From Escherichia coli (GTDB lineage: Bacteria; Pseudomonadota; Gammaproteobacteria; Enterobacterales; Enterobacteriaceae): 64,000 nt of DNA. Shown piece by piece: positions 9 through 19,891 of the stretch. The notes under the pieces are model-generated. The model had not been told where the DNA came from and did not search any database. It was given only the letters and a program-made list of their open reading frames with translations. Location: assembly GCF_050320075.1 (NCBI RefSeq), contig NZ_CP190018.1; one strand, given 5' to 3'. Every line of letters starts with the position of its first letter. Within the stretch, counting starts at the first letter, position 1. Both the position numbers and the translations under genes were made by a program.

Positions 9-284
9 CTATCGCACAGGATGGATAAGATAATTCGCCTTTGTCGGAAAAGGGGGCGGAATTTCTTCTGTGAGGTTTAATGGTGGCGCATCTTCTCTCA
101 TTTTTAACAAAATCGCCTGTGATGGCTGAAATTTTGTAGAGTGAGTTGTCGTCATCGCTGACGTTTTTTCCGTCTCTTTATAGCTCGCCTCACTACCACC
201 ACCAGAAATAGAAAATGCAAAAACATTGCACGCCATAATAGAGACCAATAAAAATAAGCTAAAAAGCATTAAGTTTACTTTCAT
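9..284 (-). CDS. ypdI: small putative lipoprotein YpdI (91 aa)
   Basis: Track ORF; hydrophobic N-terminal signal ending in lipobox-like IMAC; divergent from yfdX as in K-12 gene order. Confidence 0.6.
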   Translation of the reverse strand: MKVNLMLFSLFLLVSIMACNVFAFSISGGGSEASYKETEKTSAMTTTHSTKFQPSQAILLKMREDAPPLNLTEEIPPPFPTKANYLIHPVR

Positions 285-1266: not shown

Positions 1267-1303
1267 TTTTATGACCACAATACGACAGGTTGTGGTCATA
1301 AAA
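1267..1303. terminator. hairpin terminator downstream of yfdX
   Basis: Perfect 14-bp inverted repeat TTTTATGACCACAA / TTGTGGTCATAAAA with 9-nt loop, about 55 bp after the yfdX stop, with A/T-rich flanks. Confidence 0.5.
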
Positions 1304-1455: not shown

Positions 1456-1473
1456 TTCTTACAGTTGTAAGAA
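1456..1473. promoter_or_regulatory. EvgA box upstream of frc
   Basis: TTCTTACA-GT-TGTAAGAA, a perfect 8-2-8 palindrome matching the EvgA consensus, about 250 bp upstream of the frc start. Confidence 0.6.
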
Positions 1474-1724
1474 TAACATCACAAATGTCGCGGCTCTCTC
1501 TGATTACCGCGAACCAATATTTATCATATTCTTCTTTTCGTCCTCACTACTTACCATGCAGAAAGGAATTGGAAGTGGCGATGAAATGATTTTCAGCACT
1601 TGATACAGGAATTTAAAAATATCGAGTGCAGCTACGACGATATTTTGCGGATTATTTATAGAGGGCGTTATGCCTTAAATAAACGCTAAATTAACATATA
1701 TTTAATTAACTAATAGGTATTGCT

Positions 1725-2975
1725 ATGTCAACTCCACTTCAAGGAATTAAAGTTCTCGATTTCACCGGTGTGCAATCTGGCCCATCTTGTACTCAAATGC
1801 TGGCCTGGTTTGGCGCTGACGTCATTAAAATTGAACGTCCCGGCGTTGGTGACGTAACGCGTCACCAGCTGCGAGATATTCCTGATATCGATGCGCTTTA
1901 CTTCACCATGCTTAACAGTAACAAACGTTCTATTGAATTAAATACCAAAACAGCGGAAGGCAAAGAGGTAATGGAAAAGCTGATCCGCGAAGCTGATATC
2001 TTAGTCGAGAACTTTCATCCAGGGGCCATTGATCACATGGGCTTCACCTGGGAGCATATTCAAGAAATCAATCCACGTCTGATTTTTGGTTCGATCAAAG
2101 GGTTTGATGAGTGTTCGCCTTATGTGAATGTAAAAGCCTATGAAAACGTTGCTCAGGCAGCGGGTGGTGCGGCATCCACTACGGGTTTTTGGGACGGTCC
2201 GCCGCTGGTAAGCGCTGCAGCGTTGGGTGACAGCAACACCGGAATGCATTTACTGATCGGTTTACTTGCTGCTTTGCTGCATCGCGAAAAAACGGGGCGT
2301 GGGCAACGAGTCACCATGTCAATGCAGGATGCCGTATTGAACCTTTGCCGCGTGAAATTACGCGACCAGCAGCGTCTCGATAAATTGGGTTATCTGGAAG
2401 AATACCCGCAGTATCCGAATGGCACATTTGGTGATGCAGTTCCCCGCGGAGGTAATGCGGGTGGTGGCGGTCAGCCTGGCTGGATCCTGAAATGTAAAGG
2501 CTGGGAAACCGATCCTAACGCCTATATTTATTTCACTATTCAGGAGCAAAACTGGGAAAACACCTGTAAAGCCATCGGCAAACCAGATTGGATTACCGAT
2601 CCGGCATACAGTACAGCCCATGCCCGACAGCCACATATTTTCGATATTTTTGCTGAAATCGAAAAATACACTGTCACTATTGATAAACATGAAGCGGTGG
2701 CCTATTTGACTCAGTTTGATATTCCTTGTGCACCGGTTTTAAGTATGAAAGAAATTTCACTTGATCCCTCTTTGCGCCAAAGTGGCAGTGTTGTTGAAGT
2801 GGAACAACCGTTGCGTGGAAAATATCTGACAGTTGGTTGTCCAATGAAATTCTCTGCCTTTACGCCGGATATTAAAGCTGCGCCGCTATTAGGTGAACAT
2901 ACCGCTGCTGTATTGCAGGAGCTGGGTTATAGCGACGATGAAATTGCTGCAATGAAGCAAAACCACGCCATCTGA
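1725..2975 (+). CDS. frc: formyl-CoA:oxalate CoA-transferase
   Basis: Track ORF 416 aa; family III CoA-transferase sequence recognised as Frc (YfdW); immediately upstream of oxc. Confidence 0.95.
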
Positions 2976-3028
2976 TATTAACGGGGGCTTCTGGCTCCCA
3001 ATTTATAAAAATTTCGAGGTTATTAATC

Positions 3029-4723
3029 ATGTCAGATCAACTTCAAATGACAGATGGTATGCATATCATCGTTGAAGCATTAAAACAGAATGATATTGAC
3101 ACTATTTATGGTGTTGTAGGTATTCCTGTGACGGATATGGCGCGCCATGCCCAGGCGGAAGGCATTCGTTATATTGGTTTTCGTCATGAGCAGTCGGCAG
3201 GCTATGCCGCTGCGGCAAGCGGTTTTCTTACCCAAAAACCAGGGATCTGCCTGACAGTGTCTGCGCCAGGATTCCTCAATGGTTTGACCGCATTGGCCAA
3301 CGCAACGGTAAATGGTTTTCCGATGATCATGATTAGCGGCTCCAGCGACCGCGCGATCGTCGACCTACAGCAAGGTGATTATGAAGAGCTGGACCAAATG
3401 AATGCGGCAAAACCGTATGCCAAAGCAGCATTTCGCGTTAATCAGCCGCAGGATCTTGGCATTGCATTGGCACGCGCTATCCGGGTCTCAGTATCGGGTC
3501 GCCCTGGCGGAGTTTATCTTGATTTACCAGCAAATGTCCTGGCCGCGACGATGGAAAAAGACGAAGCGTTAACCACGATTGTAAAAGTTGAAAATCCGTC
3601 GCCAGCATTATTGCCATGCCCGAAGTCAGTCACTAGCGCAATTTCGCTTTTAGCAAAAGCTGAACGACCATTAGTTATCCTTGGCAAAGGCGCGGCGTAT
3701 TCACAAGCGGATGAACAGCTTCGTGAATTTATTGAAAGTGCCCAGATTCCATTCCTGCCAATGTCTATGGCGAAAGGGATCCTCGAAGATACACATCCAC
3801 TTTCTGCGGCAACTGCGCGTTCGTTTGCCCTGGCAAATGCTGACGTTGTCATGCTTGTCGGTGCACGACTGAATTGGTTACTGGCACACGGTAAAAAAGG
3901 ATGGGCGGCAGATACACAGTTTATTCAACTGGATATTGAACCGCAGGAAATTGACAGCAACCGCCCCATTGCTGTGCCAGTCGTTGGCGATATTGCATCC
4001 AGTATGCAAGGTATGCTGGCAGAATTGAAACAAAACACATTTACGACTCCACTGGTATGGCGCGATATTTTAAATATCCACAAGCAGCAAAATGCACAAA
4101 AAATGCATGAAAAATTAAGTACAGATACTCAACCATTAAATTACTTTAATGCATTAAGTGCTGTGCGCGATGTATTGCGCGAGAACCAGGATATTTATTT
4201 AGTTAATGAAGGTGCAAATACCCTGGATAATGCACGAAATATTATTGATATGTATAAACCACGTCGCCGTCTGGATTGTGGTACCTGGGGTGTCATGGGC
4301 ATCGGTATGGGCTATGCCATCGGTGCTAGCGTGACCTCTGGTTCTCCGGTTGTCGCCATTGAAGGTGATAGTGCTTTTGGTTTCAGTGGGATGGAGATTG
4401 AAACGATTTGTCGATATAACCTGCCGGTGACGATCGTTATTTTTAATAATGGCGGCATCTACAGAGGAGACGGTGTTGATCTCAGTGGCGCTGGTGCACC
4501 ATCACCAACAGATCTATTGCACCATGCAAGGTATGACAAATTAATGGATGCGTTTCGTGGCGTTGGCTATAACGTCACTACGACAGATGAACTTCGTCAT
4601 GCTTTAACCACCGGTATTCAGTCGCGCAAACCGACCATTATTAATGTGGTCATCGACCCTGCAGCAGGAACTGAAAGTGGCCATATTACCAAACTTAACC
4701 CAAAACAAGTCGCTGGTAATTAA
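3029..4723 (+). CDS. oxc: oxalyl-CoA decarboxylase (ThDP-dependent)
   Basis: Track ORF 564 aa; thiamine-diphosphate enzyme family sequence recognised as Oxc (YfdU). Confidence 0.95.
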
Positions 4724-4791
4724 ATACTGACATCGTCTCCTCTTGCCAACTCATTATCGATGGTGAGGGGACCCTTATCGGAAATACTATT

Positions 4792-5736
4792 ATGCTAACA
4801 TTTTTTATTGGCGATTTATTGCCTATTATCGTAATCATGCTGTTGGGTTATTTTAGCGGCAGACGAGAAACTTTTTCAGAAGATCAAGCCCGGGCATTTA
4901 ATAAACTGGTATTAAACTACGCTCTTCCTGCGGCCCTATTTGTTTCTATTACCCGGGCAAACAGGGAAATGATTTTTGCGGACACTCGCCTGACCCTTGT
5001 ATCACTTGTGGTTATTGTCGGATGTTTCTTTTTCTCCTGGTTTGGTTGCTACAAATTTTTTAAACGTACTCATGCAGAAGCAGCAGTATGTGCATTAATT
5101 GCAGGTTCACCTACCATCGGATTCCTGGGATTTGCAGTTCTCGATCCTATTTATGGCGATTCCGTATCAACAGGTTTAGTTGTAGCAATTATTTCTATTA
5201 TTGTTAACGCAATTACTATTCCTATTGGTCTGTATTTGCTGAATCCTTCCTCAGGAGCGGATGGTAAGAAGAATAGTAATCTGAGCGCATTAATTTCTGC
5301 GGCAAAGGAGCCAGTAGTATGGGCACCTGTTCTGGCAACGATCCTGGTGTTGGTTGGGGTAAAAATTCCGGCAGCATGGGACCCAACCTTTAATCTGATT
5401 GCGAAGGCTAACTCAGGGGTAGCGGTATTCGCTGCGGGGTTGACTCTGGCTGCACATAAATTCGAATTCAGTGCCGAAATTGCTTATAACACCTTCCTGA
5501 AGCTGATTCTGATGCCACTGGCGCTGCTTCTCGTGGGTATGGCATGTCATTTGAACAGCGAACATTTGCAGATGATGGTACTGGCAGGTGCCTTACCGCC
5601 GGCATTCTCCGGAATCATTATTGCCAGCCGGTTTAATGTCTACACCCGCACTGGTACAGCGTCACTGGCTGTGAGCGTACTGGGCTTTGTCGTCACGGCT
5701 CCTTTGTGGATTTATGTCAGTCGACTGGTTTCATAA
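4792..5736 (+). CDS. yfdV: AEC-family membrane transporter YfdV
   Basis: Track ORF 314 aa, polytopic membrane protein; position between oxc and yfdE. Confidence 0.85.
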
Positions 5737-5764
5737 TTAATCATGTTATTGATTTTACATAAAT

Positions 5765-5795
5765 GCCGAAGTGTCTTTTCACCTTCGGCTTTTTT
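5765..5795 (+). terminator. intrinsic-terminator-like hairpin between yfdV and yfdE
   Basis: GCCGAAG-(11 nt loop)-CTTCGGC followed by TTTTTT; it overlaps the GTG that opens the track ORF at 5771. Confidence 0.45.
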
Positions 5796-5809
5796 CAAGG
5801 CATAAGCAA

Positions 5810-6955
5810 ATGACAAATAATGAATGCAAAGGGCCGTTTGAAGGCTTATTAGTTATCGATATGACACATGTCCTTAATGGACCTTTCGGAACTCAACTTC
5901 TTTGTAATATGGGCGCAAGGGTAATTAAAGTTGAGCCGCCGGGTCATGGTGATGATACCCGCACATTTGGTCCCTATGTGGATGGACAGTCACTCTATTA
6001 CAGTTTTATTAATCATGGCAAAGAGAGTGTGGTTCTTGATTTAAAGAATGATCACGATAAAAGTATATTTATAAATATGCTTAAACAAGCTGATGTATTA
6101 GCTGAGAATTTTCGCCCAGGTACAATGGAAAAACTGGGGTTTTCATGGGAAACGCTACAAGAAATCAACCCGCGTCTCATATATGCTTCATCGTCAGGTT
6201 TTGGGCATACCGGCCCGCTAAAAGATGCTCCAGCCTACGATACCATCATTCAGGCAATGAGCGGGATAATGATGGAAACAGGGTACCCTGATGCTCCGCC
6301 AGTGCGCGTGGGTACCTCTCTTGCGGATTTATGTGGCGGTGTCTATTTATTCAGCGGAATAGTGAGTGCACTTTATGGCCGCGAAAAGAGCCAGAGAGGG
6401 GCGCATGTCGATATAGCGATGTTTGATGCCACGCTGAGTTTTCTGGAGCATGGTCTGATGGCATATATTGCGACAGGGAAGTCACCACAACGCCTGGGAA
6501 ATCGCCATCCCTACATGGCACCTTTTGATGTTTTTGATACTCAGGATAAGCCGATTACGATTTGTTGTGGTAATGACAAGCTTTTTTCTGCGTTATGCCA
6601 GGCACTGGAGCTTACGGAACTGGTTAATGATCCCCGATTTAGCAGCAATATTTTACGCGTACAAAACCAGGCTATTCTTAAACAATATATTGAGCGAACG
6701 TTAAAAACGCAGGCAGCTGAAGTTTGGTTAGCCAAAATACATGAAGTTGGTGTGCCCGTCGCGCCGTTATTAAGTGTGGCTGAGGCCATTAATTTGCCAC
6801 AAACTCAGGCGAGAAATATGTTGATTGAAGCCGGGGGAATAATGATGCCAGGTAATCCGATAAAAATCAGCGGCTGCGCGGACCCGCATGTTATGCCGGG
6901 AGCGGCAACGCTCGACCAACATGGGGAACAAATTCGCCAGGAGTTTTCATCATAA
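5810..6955 (+). CDS. yfdE: family III CoA-transferase YfdE (acetyl-CoA:oxalate CoA-transferase)
   Basis: Track ORF 5771..6955; start moved to the in-frame ATG at 5810 (381 aa) because the upstream part lies inside the hairpin/T-run; paralogous to Frc. Confidence 0.85.
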   Translation: MTNNECKGPFEGLLVIDMTHVLNGPFGTQLLCNMGARVIKVEPPGHGDDTRTFGPYVDGQSLYYSFINHGKESVVLDLKNDHDKSIFINMLKQADVLAENFRPGTMEKLGFSWETLQEINPRLIYASSSGFGHTGPLKDAPAYDTIIQAMSGIMMETGYPDAPPVRVGTSLADLCGGVYLFSGIVSALYGREKSQRGAHVDIAMFDATLSFLEHGLMAYIATGKSPQRLGNRHPYMAPFDVFDTQDKPITICCGNDKLFSALCQALELTELVNDPRFSSNILRVQNQAILKQYIERTLKTQAAEVWLAKIHEVGVPVAPLLSVAEAINLPQTQARNMLIEAGGIMMPGNPIKISGCADPHVMPGAATLDQHGEQIRQEFSS

Positions 6956-7010: not shown

Positions 7011-10000
7011 TTAGTCATTTTGTTGACAGAAAACAGCTATCTCCTGGTCCAGCTCTGCAATGTGTTCTTTAACAGAGTTCAGCAACTTAAGAATTTCAGG
7101 CTTACTGTCATCTGAAACAGGTGTTATTTCTAACTGATGGCTAATATTAATCAACTTTTGCAAATTGAGGATGTTAGCCGCACCGTGGATGCGATGAATA
7201 CACTGATGGAAAGTTCTGTTGTCGCCAGCTTCTAGTGCATGAAACGCAGCGGGTAGATCTTTATGCGTTTCATGCTGGAAAGTCATGAGAATCTCCTGCA
7301 TCAGTTGTAGATCGTTCGCCGTATTATTTTTCAGGGCCTCGATATCAAGGTGGCGATACTGAGGTGCAATAGGCGCAACCTGGTGTAACTGACTTAAATG
7401 TGTTTTCAGTACATCCAGGGTCAACGGTTTGAACAAACATAAGTTCATGCCGCAATTTAACCCTTTTTCACGTTCGTTAGCCTGTGCGTTGGCTGTAAGC
7501 CCCCAGATGGGTAAGGAAGAATTTTGCTCACGGAGTTTGCGAGTCAACTCAAAACCATCCATATTCGGCATATTAACGTCAGTAATAAGCAGATCATAAT
7601 GTTGCATACTGACTTTGTGTAGCGCTTGCACACCATCAGTTGCTTCATCAACATCATATCCTAATAGGTTTAGCTGGCGTTTGAGTAATAGCCTGTTGGT
7701 CGGATGATCATCCGCGATTAATATGCTCAACTTTTCAGGGAGTGTCATGGGTTGTTCTGCTTTTGCCTCGACAGCCGCCACTTGTTGGGTAATTTCTACC
7801 GGGATTGTGATCGTAAATGTCGTTCCTATGCCTGGATGACTTTCTAATGACAAATCGCCCTGCATGTTTTTAATTAATTCTTTGCAGATCATTAAGCCTA
7901 AACCAGAACCTGTTTGCTGACGACCTGCACTTGTTTGGCTATAGCGTTTAAACAGTTGTTGTTGTTCTTCCTGCGATAATCCACTTCCAGAATCCATAAT
8001 CGTCATTTTGATAACAGCGTGGTTGTCATCAATGTCACCCAGGGAGGTCGTAATTTTTACTGCCCCCTCGGTAGTAAATTTAAGAGCATTGCTCAGTAAA
8101 TTAGATAAGACCTGCTTAAACGCCTGAGGGTCGATCTTAACCTGGTAATGTTCTGGAAACGTACTGCTGCAACTTAATGCGATGGATTTGCTTGCAGCAA
8201 TCGCACCGAAAGAATGACAAGTGTTCTGGACTAAAGTAGGGATATCGACCCATTGTGGTTGAAGTTGATAGTTACCCGATTCAATTTTGTCGACATCAAG
8301 GATTTCACCAATTAAGCCGAGGAGTGATTGTCCGGTGGCGTAGGCAAGTGAAATCGCCTCCACCCGTTGCTCCTTGCTAAGACCAGAACCCGACAGAAGT
8401 TCCAGGAAGCCCATAATGGAGCTTATTGGTGTTCTTATTTCGTGACTCATTGTTGCCAGAAACTGGCTTTTTGCGACAGTTGCATTGATCGCTTTATTTC
8501 TCTCTACCTCGAGTGCATGAATTAAATCACGCGTCTCGGTAATATCTTGCCAACCACAAATATAAACAGCATGATCGCTGGCTGGCAGATTGCATAATGT
8601 ATGCCAGTGGTTAATGCATCTTTTCTCGATGCCATTATCAATTTCAAATACCTGTGTGTATATTGTTCGATTTTCTTTCGTTTCTGCTGTGACTTCATGC
8701 GCATTAGAAAAAACATCTTTAAAGGGTGAGTCACTGTTTTCTAATGGTAACATTGCATTTTTGTAGTAATCCGCAGTGAAATAATGTTCAAAAGCACTAT
8801 TATGACTAATGACATTACCTTGCCAGTTTACAACATAAGTTGGATTCGGTAAGGAATCCGAGAGTGCTTTTCGGAATGATATTTGGTTTTCTAAATCACC
8901 CTGAATGACTTTACGACGACGAACTGAGCGTAACAGGTAGAATCCCCATAAAAGGCTACTGCCAACTAATAAAACGGATAATGTCGTGACAATATAAAAT
9001 TGCTCGCTATAGAGGTCCCATGTGTCAATGGTCACATTGGGCATTTTAATCCATTTTTCCGTCAGGCGCAGAACTTCGCTTGGGGGAATTGCATTCAGTG
9101 CTTTATTAATAATATCCTTAAGTTCCGGTTCTCCGCGAGGAAAAGCGAACGAAAGCGATGCATTCGGAACGCCGGGAATAAGAAAATGATAAAGTTCATT
9201 AGGATAGTAATGGTCGATCATGTAACGTGAATTTAACTGTGTCGCGACCAGAGCATCAAGTTCGCCTTCCTTGACCTTGTGAAATGCAGCGCTGGCGTTA
9301 TCGACTTTTATCCACTCTACCTCCGGATACATCTCTTTTAATTGCGAATGAAGCTCATAATAATAGGGAATGGCAACTTTCATTCCTTTTTTTAATGTTT
9401 GTTCACTGTCAGGCGCTTTTTGCATGACAAAAACGTAAGGCGTTGTTATGAAGGCTTCAGCAAATAAAACATTATTTTCTCTATCTTCACTATAAATAGC
9501 GGCGGGCAATATATCCCATCCACCGGGGTTAAGCTGTGTCCCCGCATGAATATTGTGTGAAACGGTGATCGGAGAAAAATTTAAACCTGTTTGCAAGGTA
9601 ATAATATTAAGAATATCACCCATCACGCCCCGAACTGAGCCAGTTTCATCTGTCATAGAATAGGGTGGCGAGTAAGGATTTTCCAGCACCTTTAAATCGG
9701 GATGCTGCTTAATCCACTGTTTTTCATGTTCAGTGAGTTCTAATGGTTTGTTCAGAAAGGCCAGGTTTCCTGTATCAAGCCAATTTTGTGATACTTCATA
9801 GCGAACTTCATTTGTTAAAGCATCAACAAACCGATTGAGTACTTCATTAAGAACGACTGAATCTTTTCTGGTTAAGAAAAAGTTATATTGACGCGGCGAG
9901 TTATAATATTTCACTACATTTAAGGAGTGAGTGAAATAGCGGGAAATCATACTGCTGGTAATAATGTTACTACCAATAAAGTAATCATTCTGTCCGGCTG

Positions 10001-10604
10001 AGACGGATGCTAATGCCTGATATAAATTTGTAAAAGAGATAATTGTTGCTTTTGGAAATGATTGATGAATTACCTCATCTGGAGGGTAATTTGCTACCCG
10101 AGCAATATTTACTGGTTTTGATGAGGTAAGCGGTCTCATTGAATCGTGAAGGGTGGTGACCAGCGCCGGAAAGGTAATTATCAGCGGTTTGGTTGCAGCA
10201 ATGTCATCATTAAGAGGCGGCGAAGCAACTAAATGTGATAACACTATATCGACTTCCCCTTCTGTAAGCGCGTCCATTGCTTTTTGATGATCTGCGTATT
10301 CCCGGAGTGTTAATTTGATATTTAACGCTCTTTTTAAAAGATTTAAATAATCAGCATTAATACCACGAACCCGTTGCTGCGAATCGGTATGCAACAAAGT
10401 AGCCGTTTGGGACTTGTGTACTGCAATCACAAGATTTTTTTTGCTCGCTAACCAACGTAATTCCTTGTTGCTCAGACGTAGTGGATCAAGCGTGACACGG
10501 TTGTTACTACTGATGCCACGATATTCGATGTAATCTTCGTCTGCGAAACTTATGGTCGACCAAAGACCACAACAGAGAAGAATAATATAGGGTAAAAACT
10601 TCAT
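7011..10604 (-). CDS. evgS: hybrid sensor histidine kinase EvgS
   Basis: Track ORF 1197 aa with periplasmic domains, HisKA/HATPase, receiver and HPt regions; sequence recognised as EvgS. Confidence 0.95.
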   Translation of the reverse strand: MKFLPYIILLCCGLWSTISFADEDYIEYRGISSNNRVTLDPLRLSNKELRWLASKKNLVIAVHKSQTATLLHTDSQQRVRGINADYLNLLKRALNIKLTLREYADHQKAMDALTEGEVDIVLSHLVASPPLNDDIAATKPLIITFPALVTTLHDSMRPLTSSKPVNIARVANYPPDEVIHQSFPKATIISFTNLYQALASVSAGQNDYFIGSNIITSSMISRYFTHSLNVVKYYNSPRQYNFFLTRKDSVVLNEVLNRFVDALTNEVRYEVSQNWLDTGNLAFLNKPLELTEHEKQWIKQHPDLKVLENPYSPPYSMTDETGSVRGVMGDILNIITLQTGLNFSPITVSHNIHAGTQLNPGGWDILPAAIYSEDRENNVLFAEAFITTPYVFVMQKAPDSEQTLKKGMKVAIPYYYELHSQLKEMYPEVEWIKVDNASAAFHKVKEGELDALVATQLNSRYMIDHYYPNELYHFLIPGVPNASLSFAFPRGEPELKDIINKALNAIPPSEVLRLTEKWIKMPNVTIDTWDLYSEQFYIVTTLSVLLVGSSLLWGFYLLRSVRRRKVIQGDLENQISFRKALSDSLPNPTYVVNWQGNVISHNSAFEHYFTADYYKNAMLPLENSDSPFKDVFSNAHEVTAETKENRTIYTQVFEIDNGIEKRCINHWHTLCNLPASDHAVYICGWQDITETRDLIHALEVERNKAINATVAKSQFLATMSHEIRTPISSIMGFLELLSGSGLSKEQRVEAISLAYATGQSLLGLIGEILDVDKIESGNYQLQPQWVDIPTLVQNTCHSFGAIAASKSIALSCSSTFPEHYQVKIDPQAFKQVLSNLLSNALKFTTEGAVKITTSLGDIDDNHAVIKMTIMDSGSGLSQEEQQQLFKRYSQTSAGRQQTGSGLGLMICKELIKNMQGDLSLESHPGIGTTFTITIPVEITQQVAAVEAKAEQPMTLPEKLSILIADDHPTNRLLLKRQLNLLGYDVDEATDGVQALHKVSMQHYDLLITDVNMPNMDGFELTRKLREQNSSLPIWGLTANAQANEREKGLNCGMNLCLFKPLTLDVLKTHLSQLHQVAPIAPQYRHLDIEALKNNTANDLQLMQEILMTFQHETHKDLPAAFHALEAGDNRTFHQCIHRIHGAANILNLQKLINISHQLEITPVSDDSKPEILKLLNSVKEHIAELDQEIAVFCQQND

Positions 10605-10608
10605 GTGG

Positions 10609-11223
10609 TTAGCCGATTTTGTTACGTTGTGCGAATGTGTAAAGATCCATCAGTGATTTACATTCTAATTTTTCCATCAGGCGACTTTTATAAGTGCTGA
10701 CAGTTTTGTTGCTGATGAACATTTTTTCCGCAATGTCATTATTATCCTTGCCATCAAGAATATATCGCATGACACTAATTTCTTGTTTCGATAAGGAGTC
10801 GAGTTTTTGCTGGTCGGACGTTAAACTTCCAACAAACCGGTTGAGAGAGAAGGGGAAATAGCAGTAGCCATTTTTTGCAGCTTCAATAGCCGCAATGATA
10901 TTGTTCATGCCTTCTTTTTTACTCACGAATCCATTAGCGCCAGCATCAGCACAATGTTTCCCGTAAAAATGGTCATTTTTAGCGGAGACGATAATAATAA
11001 TTCCGCTATATTGGCGCTTCCTCAGCGTTTCTAACACCTGGATACCGTTAACTCCGGGGATATCGACATCAATGATGACGATATCAGGTTTAAGTGTTTC
11101 CACCCGCTGAACGGCACTTCCCCCTTCAGTCAACTCCGCTAAGATTTCAATATCGTTTTTGATCAATAAATTACGAATTGCTGCGATAGCAAGAGGATGG
11201 TCATCAATAATTATTGCGTTCAT
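10609..11223 (-). CDS. evgA: response regulator EvgA (LuxR/NarL family)
   Basis: Track ORF 204 aa, receiver domain plus C-terminal HTH; immediately upstream of evgS. Confidence 0.95.
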   Translation of the reverse strand: MNAIIIDDHPLAIAAIRNLLIKNDIEILAELTEGGSAVQRVETLKPDIVIIDVDIPGVNGIQVLETLRKRQYSGIIIIVSAKNDHFYGKHCADAGANGFVSKKEGMNNIIAAIEAAKNGYCYFPFSLNRFVGSLTSDQQKLDSLSKQEISVMRYILDGKDNNDIAEKMFISNKTVSTYKSRLMEKLECKSLMDLYTFAQRNKIG

Positions 11224-11447
11224 AGATTATTCCCTTTGCAATGAAGCATCTCCCTTCTCCCTGTAGTAATACAGACATAAGGCATCATCTCATTTTCTCA
11301 ATAAAAATAAGAAAATTAGAGCTTCCTTTAAGATAATTCGACAAGTATACCATATAAATAGTCGGCATAAATGAAATGTCAACAATAAAATCAGGGATTG
11401 TACCGATGATTTATAGTTTCACATTAGCACTATAAGTCTTCTCACTA

Positions 11448-11465
11448 ATCCTACATGCGTAAGAA
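11448..11465. promoter_or_regulatory. candidate EvgA box in evgA-emrK divergent region
   Basis: ATCCTACA-TG-CGTAAGAA, 14 of 16 half-site positions matching the EvgA consensus. Confidence 0.5.
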
Positions 11466-11638
11466 TTGTATTGCAAAAGCCACGGTTTAGTCCTCTGTTG
11501 TTTTTTTTGCACCTCATTTAAATTAGGCCTCCAACGTTCCTGGGACAATGTGCAACACATGCACTGTGTTTGATATGAAGAATGAATACTCTTTTCATTC
11601 AATTCATAAATTTCATCTATGCGAAATGAGAGATAATA

Positions 11639-12802
11639 GTGGAACAGATTAATTCAAATAAAAAACATTCTAACAGAAGAAAATACTTTTCTTTATTGGC
11701 GGTAGTTTTATTTATTGCGTTTTCAGGTGCCTATGCCTATTGGTCAATGGAATTAGAAGACATGATTAGTACAGATGATGCCTATGTCACGGGGAATGCA
11801 GATCCAATTTCTGCACAAGTTTCAGGCAGCGTCACTGTCGTTAATCATAAAGATACGAACTACGTTCGACAGGGTGACATTTTAGTCTCACTGGATAAGA
11901 CTGATGCCACTATCGCACTCAATAAAGCTAAAAATAATCTGGCAAATATTGTTCGGCAAACGAATAAACTGTACTTACAGGATAAACAATACAGTGCCGA
12001 AGTCGCTTCAGCACGTATTCAGTATCAACAATCTTTAGAAGATTATAACCGTCGTGTACCTTTAGCGAAGCAGGGGGTTATTTCAAAAGAAACGCTGGAG
12101 CATACCAAAGATACGTTAATAAGTAGCAAAGCGGCATTGAATGCTGCTATTCAGGCTTATAAAGCGAATAAAGCTTTAGTAATGAACACACCATTAAACC
12201 GTCAGCCACAAGTCGTTGAAGCTGCGGATGCAACCAAAGAAGCCTGGTTGGCGCTTAAACGTACGGATATTAAGAGTCCGGTTACCGGCTACATTGCCCA
12301 GCGAAGTGTTCAGGTCGGCGAAACAGTGAGTCCCGGACAATCGTTAATGGCTGTCGTACCGGCACGTCAAATGTGGGTTAATGCTAACTTTAAAGAAACA
12401 CAACTCACGGATGTACGGATTGGTCAATCGGTCAATATTATCAGCGATCTTTATGGTGAAAATGTTGTGTTTCATGGTCGGGTGACAGGGATCAATATGG
12501 GAACCGGCAATGCGTTCTCCTTATTACCTGCACAAAATGCGACAGGGAACTGGATCAAAATCGTTCAGCGTGTACCGGTTGAAGTTTCTCTTGATCCAAA
12601 AGAACTCATGGAACATCCCTTACGTATTGGTTTATCGATGACAGCAACTATTGATACGAAGAACGAAGACATTGCCGAGATGCCTGAGCTGGCTTCAACC
12701 GTGACGTCCATGCCTGCTTATACCAGTAAGGCTTTAGTTATCGATACCAGTCCGATAGAAAAAGAAATTAGCAACATTATTTCGCATAATGGACAACTTT
12801 AA
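11639..12802 (+). CDS. emrK: multidrug efflux periplasmic adaptor EmrK (EmrA paralog)
   Basis: Track ORF 387 aa, membrane-fusion protein family; stop overlaps emrY start (TAATG). Confidence 0.9.
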   Translation: MEQINSNKKHSNRRKYFSLLAVVLFIAFSGAYAYWSMELEDMISTDDAYVTGNADPISAQVSGSVTVVNHKDTNYVRQGDILVSLDKTDATIALNKAKNNLANIVRQTNKLYLQDKQYSAEVASARIQYQQSLEDYNRRVPLAKQGVISKETLEHTKDTLISSKAALNAAIQAYKANKALVMNTPLNRQPQVVEAADATKEAWLALKRTDIKSPVTGYIAQRSVQVGETVSPGQSLMAVVPARQMWVNANFKETQLTDVRIGQSVNIISDLYGENVVFHGRVTGINMGTGNAFSLLPAQNATGNWIKIVQRVPVEVSLDPKELMEHPLRIGLSMTATIDTKNEDIAEMPELASTVTSMPAYTSKALVIDTSPIEKEISNIISHNGQL

Positions 12803-14340
12803 TGGCAATCACTAAATCAACTCCGGCACCATTAACCGGTGGGACGTTATGGTGCGTCACTATTGCATTGTCATTAGCGACGTTTATGCAAATGTTGGAT
12901 TCCACTATTTCTAACGTCGCAATACCGACAATATCTGGCTTTCTGGGAGCATCAACAGACGAAGGCACCTGGGTTATCACTTCGTTTGGCGTAGCAAATG
13001 CCATTGCGATCCCTGTTACCGGCAGGCTGGCACAAAGAATAGGCGAATTAAGATTATTTTTACTTTCAGTCACTTTTTTTTCGCTGTCTTCCTTAATGTG
13101 TAGTTTATCGACCAATCTTGATGTGCTGATATTTTTTAGAGTCGTTCAGGGATTAATGGCGGGGCCGTTAATTCCACTGTCACAGAGTTTATTATTAAGG
13201 AATTATCCACCAGAAAAAAGAACATTTGCTCTGGCATTATGGTCTATGACCGTGATTATCGCGCCGATATGTGGGCCGATATTGGGCGGTTATATTTGTG
13301 ATAACTTTAGCTGGGGTTGGATATTTTTAATCAATGTCCCTATGGGGATTATCGTTCTGACATTATGCTTAACCTTACTTAAAGGAAGAGAAACTGAGAC
13401 TTCACCGGTCAAAATGAATCTACCAGGACTGACCCTGTTAGTGCTCGGTGTTGGTGGCTTGCAGATAATGCTTGATAAAGGGCGCGATCTGGATTGGTTC
13501 AACTCGAGTACAATAATAATACTAACAGTAATGTCAGTTATTTCTCTGATTTCTTTAGTCATTTGGGAGTCGACCTCAGAGAACCCGATTCTTGATCTCA
13601 GTTTGTTTAAGTCCCGTAATTTCACCATTGGTATTGTGAGTATCACATGCGCATATTTATTTTACTCTGGGGCGATAGTCCTTATGCCGCAGTTACTCCA
13701 GGAAACGATGGGGTATAATGCGATATGGGCCGGACTTGCCTATGCGCCCATCGGCATCATGCCGCTATTAATATCACCTTTGATAGGACGTTATGGCAAC
13801 AAAATTGATATGCGGTTGTTGGTGACATTTAGTTTTTTAATGTATGCGGTTTGCTATTACTGGCGTTCTGTGACATTTATGCCAACGATTGATTTTACAG
13901 GCATCATTTTGCCACAGTTTTTTCAGGGATTCGCCGTCGCCTGTTTCTTTTTACCCTTAACAACGATTTCGTTTTCAGGTTTGCCAGATAATAAATTTGC
14001 CAATGCCTCGAGTATGAGTAATTTTTTTCGTACCTTGTCAGGATCAGTTGGTACGTCGTTGACAATGACGCTGTGGGGACGACGCGAATCGTTACACCAT
14101 AGTCAGTTGACAGCAACCATCGATCAATTTAACCCCGTGTTTAATTCATCGTCACAAATTATGGATAAATACTATGGTTCGCTTTCAGGGGTTCTTAATG
14201 AAATTAATAATGAAATAACTCAGCAGTCACTTTCAATTTCTGCAAATGAGATTTTCCGTATGGCGGCTATTGCTTTTATCTTACTTACAGTTTTGGTTTG
14301 GTTTGCGAAACCGCCGTTTACAGCGAAAGGCGTTGGGTGA
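12802..14340 (+). CDS. emrY: MFS multidrug efflux pump EmrY (EmrB paralog)
   Basis: Track ORF 512 aa, 14-TMS-type MFS transporter. Confidence 0.9.
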   Translation: MAITKSTPAPLTGGTLWCVTIALSLATFMQMLDSTISNVAIPTISGFLGASTDEGTWVITSFGVANAIAIPVTGRLAQRIGELRLFLLSVTFFSLSSLMCSLSTNLDVLIFFRVVQGLMAGPLIPLSQSLLLRNYPPEKRTFALALWSMTVIIAPICGPILGGYICDNFSWGWIFLINVPMGIIVLTLCLTLLKGRETETSPVKMNLPGLTLLVLGVGGLQIMLDKGRDLDWFNSSTIIILTVMSVISLISLVIWESTSENPILDLSLFKSRNFTIGIVSITCAYLFYSGAIVLMPQLLQETMGYNAIWAGLAYAPIGIMPLLISPLIGRYGNKIDMRLLVTFSFLMYAVCYYWRSVTFMPTIDFTGIILPQFFQGFAVACFFLPLTTISFSGLPDNKFANASSMSNFFRTLSGSVGTSLTMTLWGRRESLHHSQLTATIDQFNPVFNSSSQIMDKYYGSLSGVLNEINNEITQQSLSISANEIFRMAAIAFILLTVLVWFAKPPFTAKGVG

Positions 14341-14447
14341 TGATAAAAGGAGGGGGTTATAGCAGGTAAGACCAGGGACCTTAAGTCTGCGCCATCGGCA
14401 GCATCGCTCACCCAGGGAAAGGATGGCGATGCTGAATTGAAAATTAA

Positions 14448-15776
14448 TTAGCGGCCTTTTGCCAGATATTGCTCCATCTCTTCTTCCGGCACCATTCCAC
14501 CTCCCGTCGCCCACACCAGATGAGTGGCATTACGCAGTTGTTCTGCGCTGAAACCGTGCATCTGTTGGTAACTTACTGATGCGCACACGCGCTGAGGCCC
14601 GGCCATACCCGCCAGTGCCGAAGGTTCAAGACGAATGCCTTCTTCCTGCGCCAGCCAGCCAAGCATGTCATACATGGTTTGATCGCTAAGGGTATAGAAG
14701 CCATCCAGTAGACGCTCCATTGCCCGCCCGACAAAGCCTGATGCGCGACCAACTGCAAGGCCATCCGCTGCGGTAAGGTTGTCGATACCAATATCCTGAA
14801 CAGAAATCTGATCGTGTAATCCTGTATGGACGCCTAACAGCATACAAGGGGAGTGCGTTGGTTCGGCAAAAAAGCAGTGAACATGATCGCCAAATGCCAG
14901 TTTAAGCCCGAATGCGACGCCACCAGGACCACCGCCAACACCACACGGCAGATAGACAAACAGAGGGTTATCAGCATCGACGATACGACCTTGCTCGGCA
15001 AATTGCGCTTTAAGACGCTGGCCTGCGACGGAATACCCAAGGAACAACGTGCGGGAATTCTCGTCATCAATAAAGAAACAGTTCGGGTCAGACTGCGCTG
15101 CGTTACGTCCTTCCTCGACTGCAACACCATAATCTTGCTCATATTCCACGACCGTAACGCCATGGCTGCGCAGTTTCGCTTTTTTCCATGCCCGGGCATC
15201 AGCAGACATATGTACTGTCACCTTAAAGCCAATGCGGGCGCTCATAATGCCGATTGATAACCCCAGATTTCCGGTTGAGCCCACAGCAATGCTGTATTGG
15301 CTAAAGAACTGTTTAAACTCCGGAGAAAGCAGTTTGCTGTAGTCATCTTCAAGCGTCAGCAACCCCGCTTCCAGAGCCAGTTTTTCTGCATGTGCCAGGA
15401 CTTCATAAATCCCGCCGCGTGCTTTTATGGAGCCGGAAATGGGCAAATGGCTATCTTTTTTCAGTAGCAGTTGCCCGCTGATCGGTTGTTGATATTCCTT
15501 TTCCAGCCGTTTTTGCATAGCCGGAATGGCAACCAGTTCTGATTCAATAATCCCCCCAGTAGCAGCAGTTTCAGGAAATGCTTTTGCCAGATAGGGTGCA
15601 AAACGGGATAAGCGCGCATGGGCGTCCTGAACATCCTGTTCGGTCAGGCCAACATAAGGTAAACCTTCAGCCAATGAGGTCGTGCCAGGATTAAACCAGG
15701 TGGTTTCTTTAAGAGCAACCAGATCCTTTACCAATGGATACTGGGCGATGAGCGAATTCATTTTAGCGTTTTCCAT
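14448..15776 (-). CDS. dsdA: D-serine ammonia-lyase (D-serine dehydratase)
   Basis: Track ORF 442 aa, PLP-dependent fold; recognised as DsdA; appears full length. Confidence 0.95.
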
Positions 15777-15793
15777 AGTACGTCTCTTTGCGC

Positions 15794-16012
15794 TTAGATG
15801 ATAAATGACAGCAGGAATGTGCCCGCCAGAGCGACGACTGAAGCGATAAATGTCGCTGTCGTATAGTATTTAAATGTTTCATTGAGCGTAGCGCCGCAAT
15901 ATTGCTTCGCCAGCCAGAAAAGCGAGTCCGTAACGATCGTGCAGCCAATCGCACCTGAACCGATAGCAATCGCAATAATTTCCGGGCTGATGTCGGGATA
16001 CAGCGGCAGCAC
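15794..16012 (-). pseudogene. dsdX: 3' remnant of dsdX (GntP-family D-serine permease), truncated by csc cluster
   Basis: About 72 codons encoding a GntP-family C-terminus directly upstream of dsdA; similarity ends at about 16012 where csc sequence begins; in-frame stop just upstream. Confidence 0.7.
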
Positions 16013-16254
16013 AATGATCCATATTTATATTTTCTTCTCCAGATTGGCGATGCCAGTTGGCATGTTTTACCTACTTGCCTACATGGTTACTCGTTGGCGA
16101 GAACAGAGGCGGAATTGGGTACAATTGTCCGGGAATTATTGTTATTTTTTATTGTATTGCCGTGTCGGGTGATAGGGCGTCGAGAATATCGTTGGATCTC
16201 GCCAGTGACGTCTGTTTCTGCTACAGTGCCCGTTTTACGGCAAACGGCTTGGGT

Positions 16255-17250
16255 ATGGCTTCATTAAAGGATGTCGCACGCCTGGCGGGAGTGTCGATGA
16301 TGACAGTCTCCCGGGTGATGCATAATGCAGAATCTGTGCGTCCTGCAACGCGTGATCGCGTATTGCAGGCAATCCAGACCCTGAATTATGTTCCTGATCT
16401 TTCCGCCCGTAAGATGCGCGCTCAAGGACGTAAGCCGTCGACTCTCGCCGTGCTGGCGCAGGACACTGCTACCACTCCTTTCTCTGTTGATATTCTGCTT
16501 GCCATTGAGCAAACCGCCAGCGAGTTCGGCTGGAATAGTTTTTTAATCAATATTTTTTCTGAAGATGACGCTGCCCGCGCGGCACGTCAGCTGCTTGCCC
16601 ACCGTCCGGATGGCATTATCTATACTACAATGGGGCTGCGACATATCACGCTGCCTGAGTCTCTGTATGGTGAAAATATTGTATTGGCGAACTGTGTGGC
16701 GGATGACCCAGCGTTACCCAGTTATATCCCTGATGATTACACTGCACAATATGAATCAACACAGCATTTGCTCGCGGCGGGCTATCGTCAACCGTTATGC
16801 TTCTGGCTACCGGAAAGTGCGTTGGCAACAGGGTATCGTCGGCAGGGATTTGAGCAGGCCTGGCGTGATGCTGGACGAGATCTGGCTGAGGTGAAACAAT
16901 TTCACATGGCAACAGGTGATGATCACTACACCGATCTCGCAAGTTTACTCAATGACCACTTCAAATCGGGCAAACCAGATTTTGATGTTCTGATATGTGG
17001 TAACGATCGCGCAGCCTTTGTGGCTTATCAGGTTCTTTTGGCGAAGGGGGTACGTATCCCGAAGGATGTCGCCGTAATGGGCTTTGATAATCTGGTTGGC
17101 GTCGGGCATCTGTTTTTACCGCCGCTGACCACAATTCAGCTTCCACATGACATTATCGGGCGGGAAGCTGCATTGCATATTATTGAAGGTCGTGAAGGGG
17201 GAAGAGTGACGCGGATCCCTTGCCCGCTGTTGATCCGTTGTTCCACCTGA
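16255..17250 (+). CDS. cscR: LacI-family sucrose operon repressor CscR
   Basis: Track ORF 16057..17250; start moved to in-frame ATG at 16255 (331 aa) where the LacI-type HTH begins (MASLKDVARLAGVSMMTVSRV). Confidence 0.9.
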   Translation: MASLKDVARLAGVSMMTVSRVMHNAESVRPATRDRVLQAIQTLNYVPDLSARKMRAQGRKPSTLAVLAQDTATTPFSVDILLAIEQTASEFGWNSFLINIFSEDDAARAARQLLAHRPDGIIYTTMGLRHITLPESLYGENIVLANCVADDPALPSYIPDDYTAQYESTQHLLAAGYRQPLCFWLPESALATGYRRQGFEQAWRDAGRDLAEVKQFHMATGDDHYTDLASLLNDHFKSGKPDFDVLICGNDRAAFVAYQVLLAKGVRIPKDVAVMGFDNLVGVGHLFLPPLTTIQLPHDIIGREAALHIIEGREGGRVTRIPCPLLIRCST

Positions 17251-17257
17251 TATTATG

Positions 17258-18691
17258 TTAACCCAGTTGCCAGAGTGCTCCATGTTGCAGCACAGCCACT
17301 CCGTGGGAGGCATAGAGCGACAGTTCCCGTTCTTCTGGCTGCGGATATATTCGGCTACTCATCACCGCCTCCCCGTCGTTAATAAATACTTCCACGGATG
17401 ATGTATCGATAAATATCCTTAGGGCGAGCATGTCACCCTGCGGGAGGGGAATACTACGGTAGCCATCTAAATTCTCGTGTGGGTAATACCGCCACAAAAC
17501 AAGTCGCTCAGATTGGTTATCAATATACAGCCGCATTCCAGTGCCGAGCTGTAATCCGTAATGTTCGGCATCACTGTTCTTCAGCGCCCACTGCAACTGA
17601 ATCTCAACTGCTTGCGCGTTTTCCTGCAAAACATATTTATTGCTGATTGTGCGGGGAGAGATAGATTGATGCTGCTGGCGTAACGACTCAGCTTCGTGTA
17701 CCGGGCGTTGTAGAAGTTTGCCATTGCTCTCTGATAGCTCGCGCGCCAGCGTCATGCAGCCTGCCCAGCCTTCACGTTTTGAGGGCATTGGCGATTCCCA
17801 CATATCCATCCAGCCGATAACAATACGCCGACCATCCTTCGCTACAAAGCTTTGTGGTGCATAAAAGTCATGCCCGTTATCAAGTTCAGTAAAATGCCCG
17901 GATTGTGCAAAAAGTCGTCCTGGCGACCACATTCCGGGTATTACGCCACTTTGAAAGCGATTTCGATAACTGTATCCCTCGGCATTCATTCCCTGCGGGG
18001 AAAACATCAGATAATGCTGATCGCCAAGGCTGAAAAAGTCCGGACATTCCCACATATAGCTTTCACCCGCATCAGCGTGGGCCAGTACGCGATCGAAGGT
18101 CCATTCACGCAATGAACTGCCGCGATAAAGCAGGATCTGCCCCGTGTTGCCTGGATCTTTCGCCCCGACAACCATCCACCATGTGTCGGCTTCACGCCAC
18201 ACTTTAGGATCGCGGAAGTGCATGATGCCTTCTGGTGGAGTGAGGATCACACCCTGTTTCTCGAAATGAATACCATCCCGACTGGTAGCCAGACATTGTA
18301 CTTCGCGAATTGCATCGTCATTACCTGCACCATCGAGCCAGACGTGTCCGGTGTAGATAAGTGAGAGGACACCATTGTCATCGACAGCACTACCTGAAAA
18401 ACACCCGTCTTTGTCATTCTCGTCTCCTGGCGCTAGCGCAATAGGCTCATGCTGCCAGTGGATCATATCGTCGCTGGTGGCATGTCCCCAGTGCATTGGC
18501 CCCCAGTGTTCGCTCATCGGGTGATGTTGATAAAACGCGTGATAACGATCGTTAAACCAGATCAGGCCGTTTGGATCGTTCATCCACCCGGCAGGAGGCG
18601 CGAGGTGAAAATGGGGATAGAAAGTGTTACCTCGGCGCTCGTGAAGTTTTGCTAGTGCGTTTTGCGCCGCATGTAATCGAGATTGCGTCAT
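17258..18691 (-). CDS. cscA: sucrose-6-phosphate hydrolase / invertase CscA (GH32)
   Basis: Track ORF 17258..18700; start at the in-frame ATG giving 477 aa; GH32 motifs WMNDPNG and EC present. Confidence 0.9.
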   Translation of the reverse strand: MTQSRLHAAQNALAKLHERRGNTFYPHFHLAPPAGWMNDPNGLIWFNDRYHAFYQHHPMSEHWGPMHWGHATSDDMIHWQHEPIALAPGDENDKDGCFSGSAVDDNGVLSLIYTGHVWLDGAGNDDAIREVQCLATSRDGIHFEKQGVILTPPEGIMHFRDPKVWREADTWWMVVGAKDPGNTGQILLYRGSSLREWTFDRVLAHADAGESYMWECPDFFSLGDQHYLMFSPQGMNAEGYSYRNRFQSGVIPGMWSPGRLFAQSGHFTELDNGHDFYAPQSFVAKDGRRIVIGWMDMWESPMPSKREGWAGCMTLARELSESNGKLLQRPVHEAESLRQQHQSISPRTISNKYVLQENAQAVEIQLQWALKNSDAEHYGLQLGTGMRLYIDNQSERLVLWRYYPHENLDGYRSIPLPQGDMLALRIFIDTSSVEVFINDGEAVMSSRIYPQPEERELSLYASHGVAVLQHGALWQLG

Positions 18692-18725
18692 TTTTATCAT
18701 CCTGGTTAAGCAAATTTGGTGAATT

Positions 18726-18737
18726 GTTAACGTTAAC
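18726..18737. promoter_or_regulatory. candidate CscR operator O1
   Basis: Perfect 12-bp palindrome GTTAACGTTAAC in the cscA/cscK divergent promoter region. Confidence 0.5.
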
Positions 18738-18789
18738 TTTTATAAAAATAAAGTCCCTTACTTTCATAAATGCGATGAATATCACAAAT

Positions 18790-18801
18790 GTTAACGTTAA
18801 C
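18790..18801. promoter_or_regulatory. candidate CscR operator O2
   Basis: Second identical copy of GTTAACGTTAAC (both preceded by TG), 64 bp from the first. Confidence 0.5.
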
Positions 18802-18906
18802 TATGACGTTTTGTGATCGAATATGCATGTTTTAGTAAATCCATGACGATTTTGCGAAAAAGAGGTTTATCACTATGCGTAAGTCAGATGAATTTAAGGG
18901 AAAAAA

Positions 18907-19830
18907 ATGTCAGCCAAAGTATGGGTTTTAGGGGATGCGGTCGTAGATCTCTTGCCAGAATCAGACGGGCGGCTACTGCCTTGTCCTGGCGGCGCGCCAG
19001 CTAACGTTGCGGTGGGAATCGCCAGATTAGGCGGAACAAGTGGGTTTATAGGTCGGGTCGGTGATGATCCTTTTGGTGCGTTAATGCAAAGAACGCTGCT
19101 AACTGAGGGTGTCGATATCACGTATCTGAAGCAAGATGAATGGCACCGGACATCCACGGTGCTTGTCGATCTGAACGATCAAGGAGAACGTTCATTTACG
19201 TTTATGGTCCGCCCCAGTGCCGATCTTTTTTTAGAGACGACAGACTTGCCCTGCTGGCGACATGCCGAATGGTTACATCTCTGTTCAATTGCGTTGTCTG
19301 CCGAGCCTTCGCGTACCAGCGCATTTACTGCGATGACGGCGATCCGGCATGCCGGAGGTTTTGTCAGCTTCGATCCCAATATTCGTGAAGATCTATGGCA
19401 AGACGAGCATTTGCTCCGCTTGTGTTTGCGGCAGGCGCTACAACTGGCGGATGTCGTCAAGCTCTCGGAAGAAGAATGGCGACTTATCAGTGGAAAAACA
19501 CAGAACGATCGGGATATATGCGCCCTGGCAAAAGAGTATGAGATCGCCATGCTGTTGGTGACTAAAGGTGCAGAAGGGGTGGTGGTCTGTTATCGAGGAC
19601 AAGTTCACCATTTTGCTGGAATGTCTGTGAATTGTGTCGATAGCACTGGGGCGGGAGATGCGTTCGTTGCCGGGTTACTCACAGGTCTGTCCTCTACGGG
19701 GTTATCTACAGATGAGAGAGAAATGCGACGAATTATCGATCTCGCTCAACGTTGCGGAGCGCTTGCAGTAACAGCGAAAGGGGCAATGACAGCGCTGCCA
19801 TGTCGACAAGAACTGGAAAGTGAGAAGTAA
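18907..19830 (+). CDS. cscK: fructokinase CscK (PfkB family)
   Basis: Track ORF 307 aa, ribokinase/pfkB fold with GAGD motif. Confidence 0.9.
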   Translation: MSAKVWVLGDAVVDLLPESDGRLLPCPGGAPANVAVGIARLGGTSGFIGRVGDDPFGALMQRTLLTEGVDITYLKQDEWHRTSTVLVDLNDQGERSFTFMVRPSADLFLETTDLPCWRHAEWLHLCSIALSAEPSRTSAFTAMTAIRHAGGFVSFDPNIREDLWQDEHLLRLCLRQALQLADVVKLSEEEWRLISGKTQNDRDICALAKEYEIAMLLVTKGAEGVVVCYRGQVHHFAGMSVNCVDSTGAGDAFVAGLLTGLSSTGLSTDEREMRRIIDLAQRCGALAVTAKGAMTALPCRQELESEK

Positions 19831-19891
19831 ACGGCGAGGCCGCTCTTATCTCTAAATAGGACATGAATTTTTTAACGACAGGCAGGTAATT

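Follow-up and report, generated by a model that had tools for sequence, protein, structure and literature searches.

Response regulators of the NarL/FixJ family bring about class-I-type activation from operators made of palindromic pairs of heptamers or octamers. For EvgA, a regulator of this type, the binding site is an 18-bp inverted repeat with a consensus that we take to be TTCYTACA-N2-TGTARGAA; this consensus was compared with the copies upstream of safA, ydeP, yegR, yfdX, and emrK.

A site of this kind in front of frc appears in several published accounts. The legend of Fig. 2 in Mullins et al. 2013 (PMC3720670) describes EvgA-bound inverted repeats, attributed to Masuda and Church 2003, through which yfdX and yfdWUVE are induced separately, and one review (PMC8147483) lists frc among the promoter regions that EvgA "strongly binds". 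In an evgS-constitutive mutant, frc shows the highest fold increase, and the same study reports EvgA sites only at targets that were already known (PMC4283999). Overproduction of EvgA raises yfdX by orders of magnitude more than yfdWUVE (PMC4759549), which implies that the two are uncoupled units. A 2026 bioRxiv proteome shows Frc rising alongside other EvgA targets, and EvgA binding at the emrKY promoter is stated, by citation, in PMC9496106 and PMC8174306. In the secondary literature that our search covered, no useful EvgA ChIP or SELEX data came up.

The locus lies in a 64-kb stretch of Escherichia coli DNA (here, the window), whose genes were identified from an identical E. coli record as annotated in RefSeq. 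With a 3-kb query, 5,422 of 5,426 complete genomes gave a match, and the identity was 100% for several RefSeq E. coli chromosomes. The window opens with ypdI (9-284, minus strand) and yfdX (580-1212), followed on the plus strand by frc (= yfdW; 1725-2975), oxc (3029-4723), yfdV (4792-5736), and yfdE (5810-6955). These last four genes (1725-6955) are separated by short intergenic gaps and are the ones that the promoter discussed here would drive; every terminator-like match found on the plus strand between 2900 and 7100 falls within coding sequence. The minus strand then encodes the sensor kinase EvgS (7011-10604) and the response regulator EvgA (10609-11223), the predicted reader of the box, and emrK begins at 11639.

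The earlier note had placed a flawless 8-2-8 inverted repeat matching the EvgA consensus at 1456-1473, after the yfdX terminator hairpin and about 250 bp before frc, and our measurements agree with it on each of these points. The 18-bp sequence TTCTTACAGTTGTAAGAA (window 1456-1473; not assigned to a strand; 2,493,506-2,493,523 in K-12, NC_000913.3) is a perfect inverted repeat, its arms TTCTTACA and TGTAAGAA being exact 8-nt reverse complements with a GT spacer between them. The repeat matches TTCYTACA-N2-TGTARGAA with 0 mismatches. It starts 153 bp beyond the terminator-like hairpin of yfdX (1267-1303), and the frc ATG (1725) lies 251 bp past its end.

Could the palindrome be a chance repeat, or an RNA or DNA hairpin to which no protein binds? 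In favor of chance, perfect 8-2-8 palindromes of any sequence number 2 in the 64 kb against 0.97 +/- 0.93 expected from composition-preserving block shuffles, so that a bare palindrome of this form is at chance level in the window. The significance of the site comes instead from the match of TTCTTACAGTTGTAAGAA to the predefined EvgA pattern: a match at all 16 specified positions is expected about 6e-5 times per 64 kb (4^-14 x 2^-2 x 64,000), and the exact 18-mer occurs once in the window and in 0 of 100 shuffles. Scanning the window for TTCYTACANNTGTARGAA with up to three mismatches returns 4 matches against 0.67 expected, and all four lie upstream of yfdX (two), frc, or emrK/evgA. An RNA hairpin is further opposed by its geometry, as a 2-nt loop cannot close, and no Rfam family matches the site. 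The window's other perfect 8-2-8 palindrome, TAAAAATGGTCATTTTTA, lies within the evgA coding sequence (10964-10981) and is consistent with chance.

The placement of the site and its conservation are further support beyond the motif match. The box is identical in K-12 MG1655, where the yfdX-frc spacer as a whole carries 15 scattered differences from the window, none of them within the box. Over a 37-nt query made up of the box and the 19 nt that follow it, 5,123 of 5,404 matching E. coli records show full identity; for a 71-nt query that takes in flanking sequence, 26 nt of it on the upstream side, the number is only 553 records. In an alignment of phylogroup-divergent strains, the changes appear just upstream of the box. 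In more than 5,000 E. coli genomes, the box thus shows almost no variation while its flanks vary. Conservation and consensus specificity together effectively refute the chance or hairpin explanation, to which we assign next to no probability.

One natural variant touches this region. In E. coli Z503 (L087, NZ_CP090305.1, 361 onward), an IS1 element is inserted right after a sequence ending in ACAAATGTCG, equivalent to window position ~1490/1491, with the EvgA box, itself intact, on one side of it and the predicted core promoter of frc on the other. From this position, frc should be uncoupled from EvgA in this strain.

The remaining boxes in the window, found by the pattern scan and likewise not assigned to a strand, are imperfect. 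Two belong to the yfdX promoter (427-444, TTCCTACAATTGTAAGAC; 465-482, TAACTACAACTGTAAGAT), and one lies in the divergent evgA/emrK intergenic region (11448-11465, ATCCTACATGCGTAAGAA). In K-12, single pattern matches precede the known EvgA targets safA (1 mismatch), ydeP (2 mismatches), and yegR (1 mismatch). Among the copies examined in the window and at these K-12 targets, only the frc box matches TTCYTACANNTGTARGAA with zero mismatches, and this probably places it among the EvgA targets with the highest affinity. We also looked for a second box 38 bp upstream of the frc box, as in yfdX; the sole candidate, TTACTTGTAA at 1435-1444, was rejected because its spacing is wrong and it is variable in K-12.

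Beyond E. coli, a species-level scan with Frc, in which close Escherichia relatives are represented by two loci, returned at least 80 frc loci. Among the matches listed, yfdX, evgS, evgA, and emrK stand beside frc at only two: an E. coli locus (L006) and contig NZ_CACVAF010000001.1 (L005), labelled Yersinia vastinensis IP38594. Of the loci listed, these two alone have a box of EvgA type before frc, spaced from it as in the window (TTCTTACAGCTGTAAGAA in the E. coli locus, TTCTTACACGCGTAAGAA in the Yersinia-labelled one). At the 78 listed loci without adjacent evgSA, which come from Providencia, Moellerella, Burkholderiales, actinobacteria, and others, no box occurs upstream of frc within 2 mismatches. 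Box and evgSA therefore co-occur at 2 of 2 loci against 0 of 78 listed, a weak comparison, with effectively two positive lineages, one of which is E. coli itself.

The Yersinia-labelled contig carries a complete yfdX-frc-oxc-yfdV-yfdE-evgS-evgA-emrK island (8816-21086), with amino acid identities of 94% for EvgA, 81% for EvgS, and 96% for Frc, and with EvgA-type boxes both before frc and in the evgA/emrK spacer. The ORFs upstream of its yfdX differ in size from those of E. coli. The island could reflect horizontal transfer or a mislabelled assembly; according to PMC8174306, the EvgS/EvgA pair is restricted to E. coli and Shigella if the Bvg and Kvg systems are set aside. The EvgA box thus travels with evgSA in a diverged island of a Yersinia assembly. 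Its whole yfdX-frc spacer is 56% identical to that of the window, against 87% for positions 1456-1508, and conservation is concentrated in islands: the hairpin, 1456-1508, 1533-1552, 1673-1692, and the ribosome-binding region. In both this locus and the listed E. coli locus, the half-sites are kept and the central GT becomes GC or CG, the pattern expected of an operator that binds a dimer; relative to the flanks and to the spacer, the half-sites are under purifying selection. We also considered a 65-aa ORF that crosses the box (1392-1589) and rejected it as coding, because the alignment with the Yersinia-labelled locus has 7-nt indels and the conservation is patchy rather than codon-like.

Directly past the box, a block of high conservation (1474-1508, plus strand, TAACATCACAAATGTCGCGGCTCTCTCTGATTACC) is predicted to form the upstream and -35 part of an activator-dependent core promoter. 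It is followed by an AT-rich run, AATATTTATCATATTCT (1516-1532, plus strand), with three overlapping -10 candidates that cannot be told apart: AATATT (1516-1521), TATCAT (1522-1527), and TATTCT (1527-1532), at offsets of 43, 49, and 53-54 nt after the box, respectively, with TATCAT scoring better than TATTCT. The predicted frc start site would fall at ~1528-1541, placing the box center at about -64 to -76. A scan for the sigma-70 consensus between the box and frc found no 9-of-12 match, as expected for an activator-dependent promoter. A -10-like hexamer occurs 53-54 nt past the box in five of six EvgA-box promoters (frc, TATTCT; yfdX, TATGAT, starting 54 nt after the box; emrK, TAAATT; safA, TATATT; yegR, TATTAT), and the summed score was reached in 0 of 1000 shuffles, a post hoc statistic that includes two possibly paralogous promoters (frc and yfdX) and one, ydeP, that deviates. 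Folding of the predicted frc leader (1534-1740) is unremarkable (z = -1.8). Two of the conserved islands, 1533-1552 and 1673-1692 (the latter with TAAATAAACGC), lie inside this predicted ~190-nt leader; neither gave an Rfam match or an unusual fold.

The best conserved stretch of the yfdX-frc spacer is not the box but positions 1473-1492 (ATAACATCACAAATGTCGCG), which are 95% conserved in the Yersinia-labelled locus and 100% in the listed E. coli locus; judged by alignment, this is more than an 18-bp operator alone would explain. In addition, frc (1498-1505) and the proximal yfdX site (507-514) both have CTCTGATT 25-32 nt past the box, and the frc copy is conserved in the listed E. coli locus and nearly so in the Yersinia-labelled one. 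The two promoters may be paralogous or may have a common extra determinant. It is conceivable, though in our estimation unlikely, that 1473-1492 and CTCTGATT make up a second, undescribed determinant of both yfd promoters, which could be an extra protein contact, the site of a co-regulator, or an anti-H-NS element. In that case, the perfect box before frc would represent a specialized output of EvgSA with the highest sensitivity and not just another member of the regulon.

The strength of this conservation could also mean that the site, or the next 20 bp, is read mainly by another regulator, either one of LuxR/NarL type, such as RcsB or GadE, or H-NS acting through nucleation or anti-silencing, with EvgA in a secondary role. 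Genomic SELEX (PMC3946193) flags H-NS and shows a peak of RpoD holoenzyme in the yfdX-frc spacer, which is AT-rich (35-40% GC). Within this region, Shimada et al. 2014 (PMC3946193) guessed a constitutive RpoD promoter for frc, TTTATA-18-AATAAT in K-12, the window equivalent of which (1337-1366) lies ~90 bp upstream of the box. The motif is present in K-12 and absent from the window because of a SNP, the first hexamer of the window strain reading TTTATC. Because it was guessed from sequence within a SELEX peak of low resolution, this promoter was not adopted here as the frc promoter. Together with the H-NS flag, it suggests that inputs other than EvgA exist at the spacer. Against another main reader, the half-sites fit the EvgA pattern without a mismatch and, among the matches listed, occur only where evgSA adjoins, and induction tracks the activity of EvgS and EvgA. 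We consider a primary reader other than EvgA very improbable.

Between yfdX and the frc promoter lies a predicted intrinsic terminator (1267-1303, plus strand), identified by a terminator scan and by folding. It has a 15-bp stem followed by TTATTTGG, with a folding energy of -25.4 kcal/mol (z = -7.2); none of 200 shuffles reaches this stability, and it is 89% identical in the Yersinia-labelled locus. With a stable GC-containing stem, a U-tract, and a position downstream of a stop codon, it has the predicted features of a rho-independent terminator. A scan of 1150-1800 for Rfam families by E-value returned only a spurious miRNA match, on this hairpin, and no riboswitch or sRNA. The hairpin plausibly insulates frc from yfdX transcription.

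A single yfdXWUVE operon is still named in several papers, and most frc transcription might come from read-through that begins at the EvgA-dependent yfdX promoter, leaving the frc box redundant or auxiliary, for instance cooperating or looping with the yfdX boxes. The U-tract TTATTTGG is interrupted and imperfect, so that termination may be incomplete. However, the hairpin is strong and conserved, the promoter-like block past the box is conserved and appears to have the geometry of other EvgA promoters, and the magnitudes of response of yfdX and yfdWUVE are very different. Moreover, the Fig. 2 legend of PMC3720670 explicitly separates yfdX and yfdWUVE. Weighing these points, we regard read-through as the main source of frc transcripts as improbable.

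We conclude that 1456-1473 is very probably the operator of an EvgA-dependent sigma-70 promoter dedicated to frc-oxc-yfdV-yfdE. The separate EvgA-dependent promoter proposed for these genes in the earlier note is supported by our comparative tests and by PMC3720670, PMC8147483, and PMC4283999. A comparison with the published EvgA regulon, which that note had called for, points the same way, with frc given as EvgA-bound in PMC8147483 and as top-induced in the evgS-constitutive mutant of PMC4283999. For this reading, sequence, specificity, conservation, and co-occurrence with evgSA were computed here, and EvgA binding and induction are taken from citations in the secondary literature; where transcription starts, the class-I-like arrangement, and the high affinity are deduced.

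In the mechanism that we propose, the neighboring kinase EvgS would phosphorylate EvgA at mildly acidic pH, and a dimer of phosphorylated EvgA would occupy the half-sites TTCTTACA and TGTAAGAA. Positioned ~65-75 bp upstream of the predicted start, the dimer would bring RNA polymerase to a core promoter whose -35 element is poor, activating frc-oxc-yfdV-yfdE from a weak sigma-70 promoter. The yfdX hairpin would make the frc unit largely independent of the yfdX promoter, with its own two imperfect boxes. Through this site, the oxalate/formyl-CoA module, which consumes protons, is coupled directly to EvgSA, the acid-sensing system next to it, and this link helps account for the acid tolerance associated with oxalate in E. 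coli. The link, also drawn in the earlier note, was published some twenty years ago, and reviews make use of it.

Compared with other NarL/FixJ-family operators, the frc site likewise pairs a dimeric helix-turn-helix regulator with an inverted repeat that precedes a weak -35 element; it differs in that the placement of its box center at about -64 to -76 depends on a predicted start site. The yfdX promoter resembles that of frc in its dependence on EvgA, in the offset of CTCTGATT, and in the offset of a candidate -10-like hexamer. The two promoters differ in their boxes, two imperfect ones 38 bp apart for yfdX and a single perfect one for frc, and in the -35 region, which is better in yfdX (TTCTCA-16-TATGAT). 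The closest counterpart is the published EvgA site of frc itself, which, as cited in PMC3720670, PMC4283999, and PMC8147483, is the same element with the same pattern, gene, K-12 sequence, and evgAS neighbor, and from which nothing essential differs here. The EvgA box before frc is thus an already published element, and the finding is correct and not new. To it our analysis makes modest additions: the near-invariance of the box in more than 5,000 E. coli genomes, its standing as the sole perfect copy among those examined, and its presence in the island of the Yersinia assembly.
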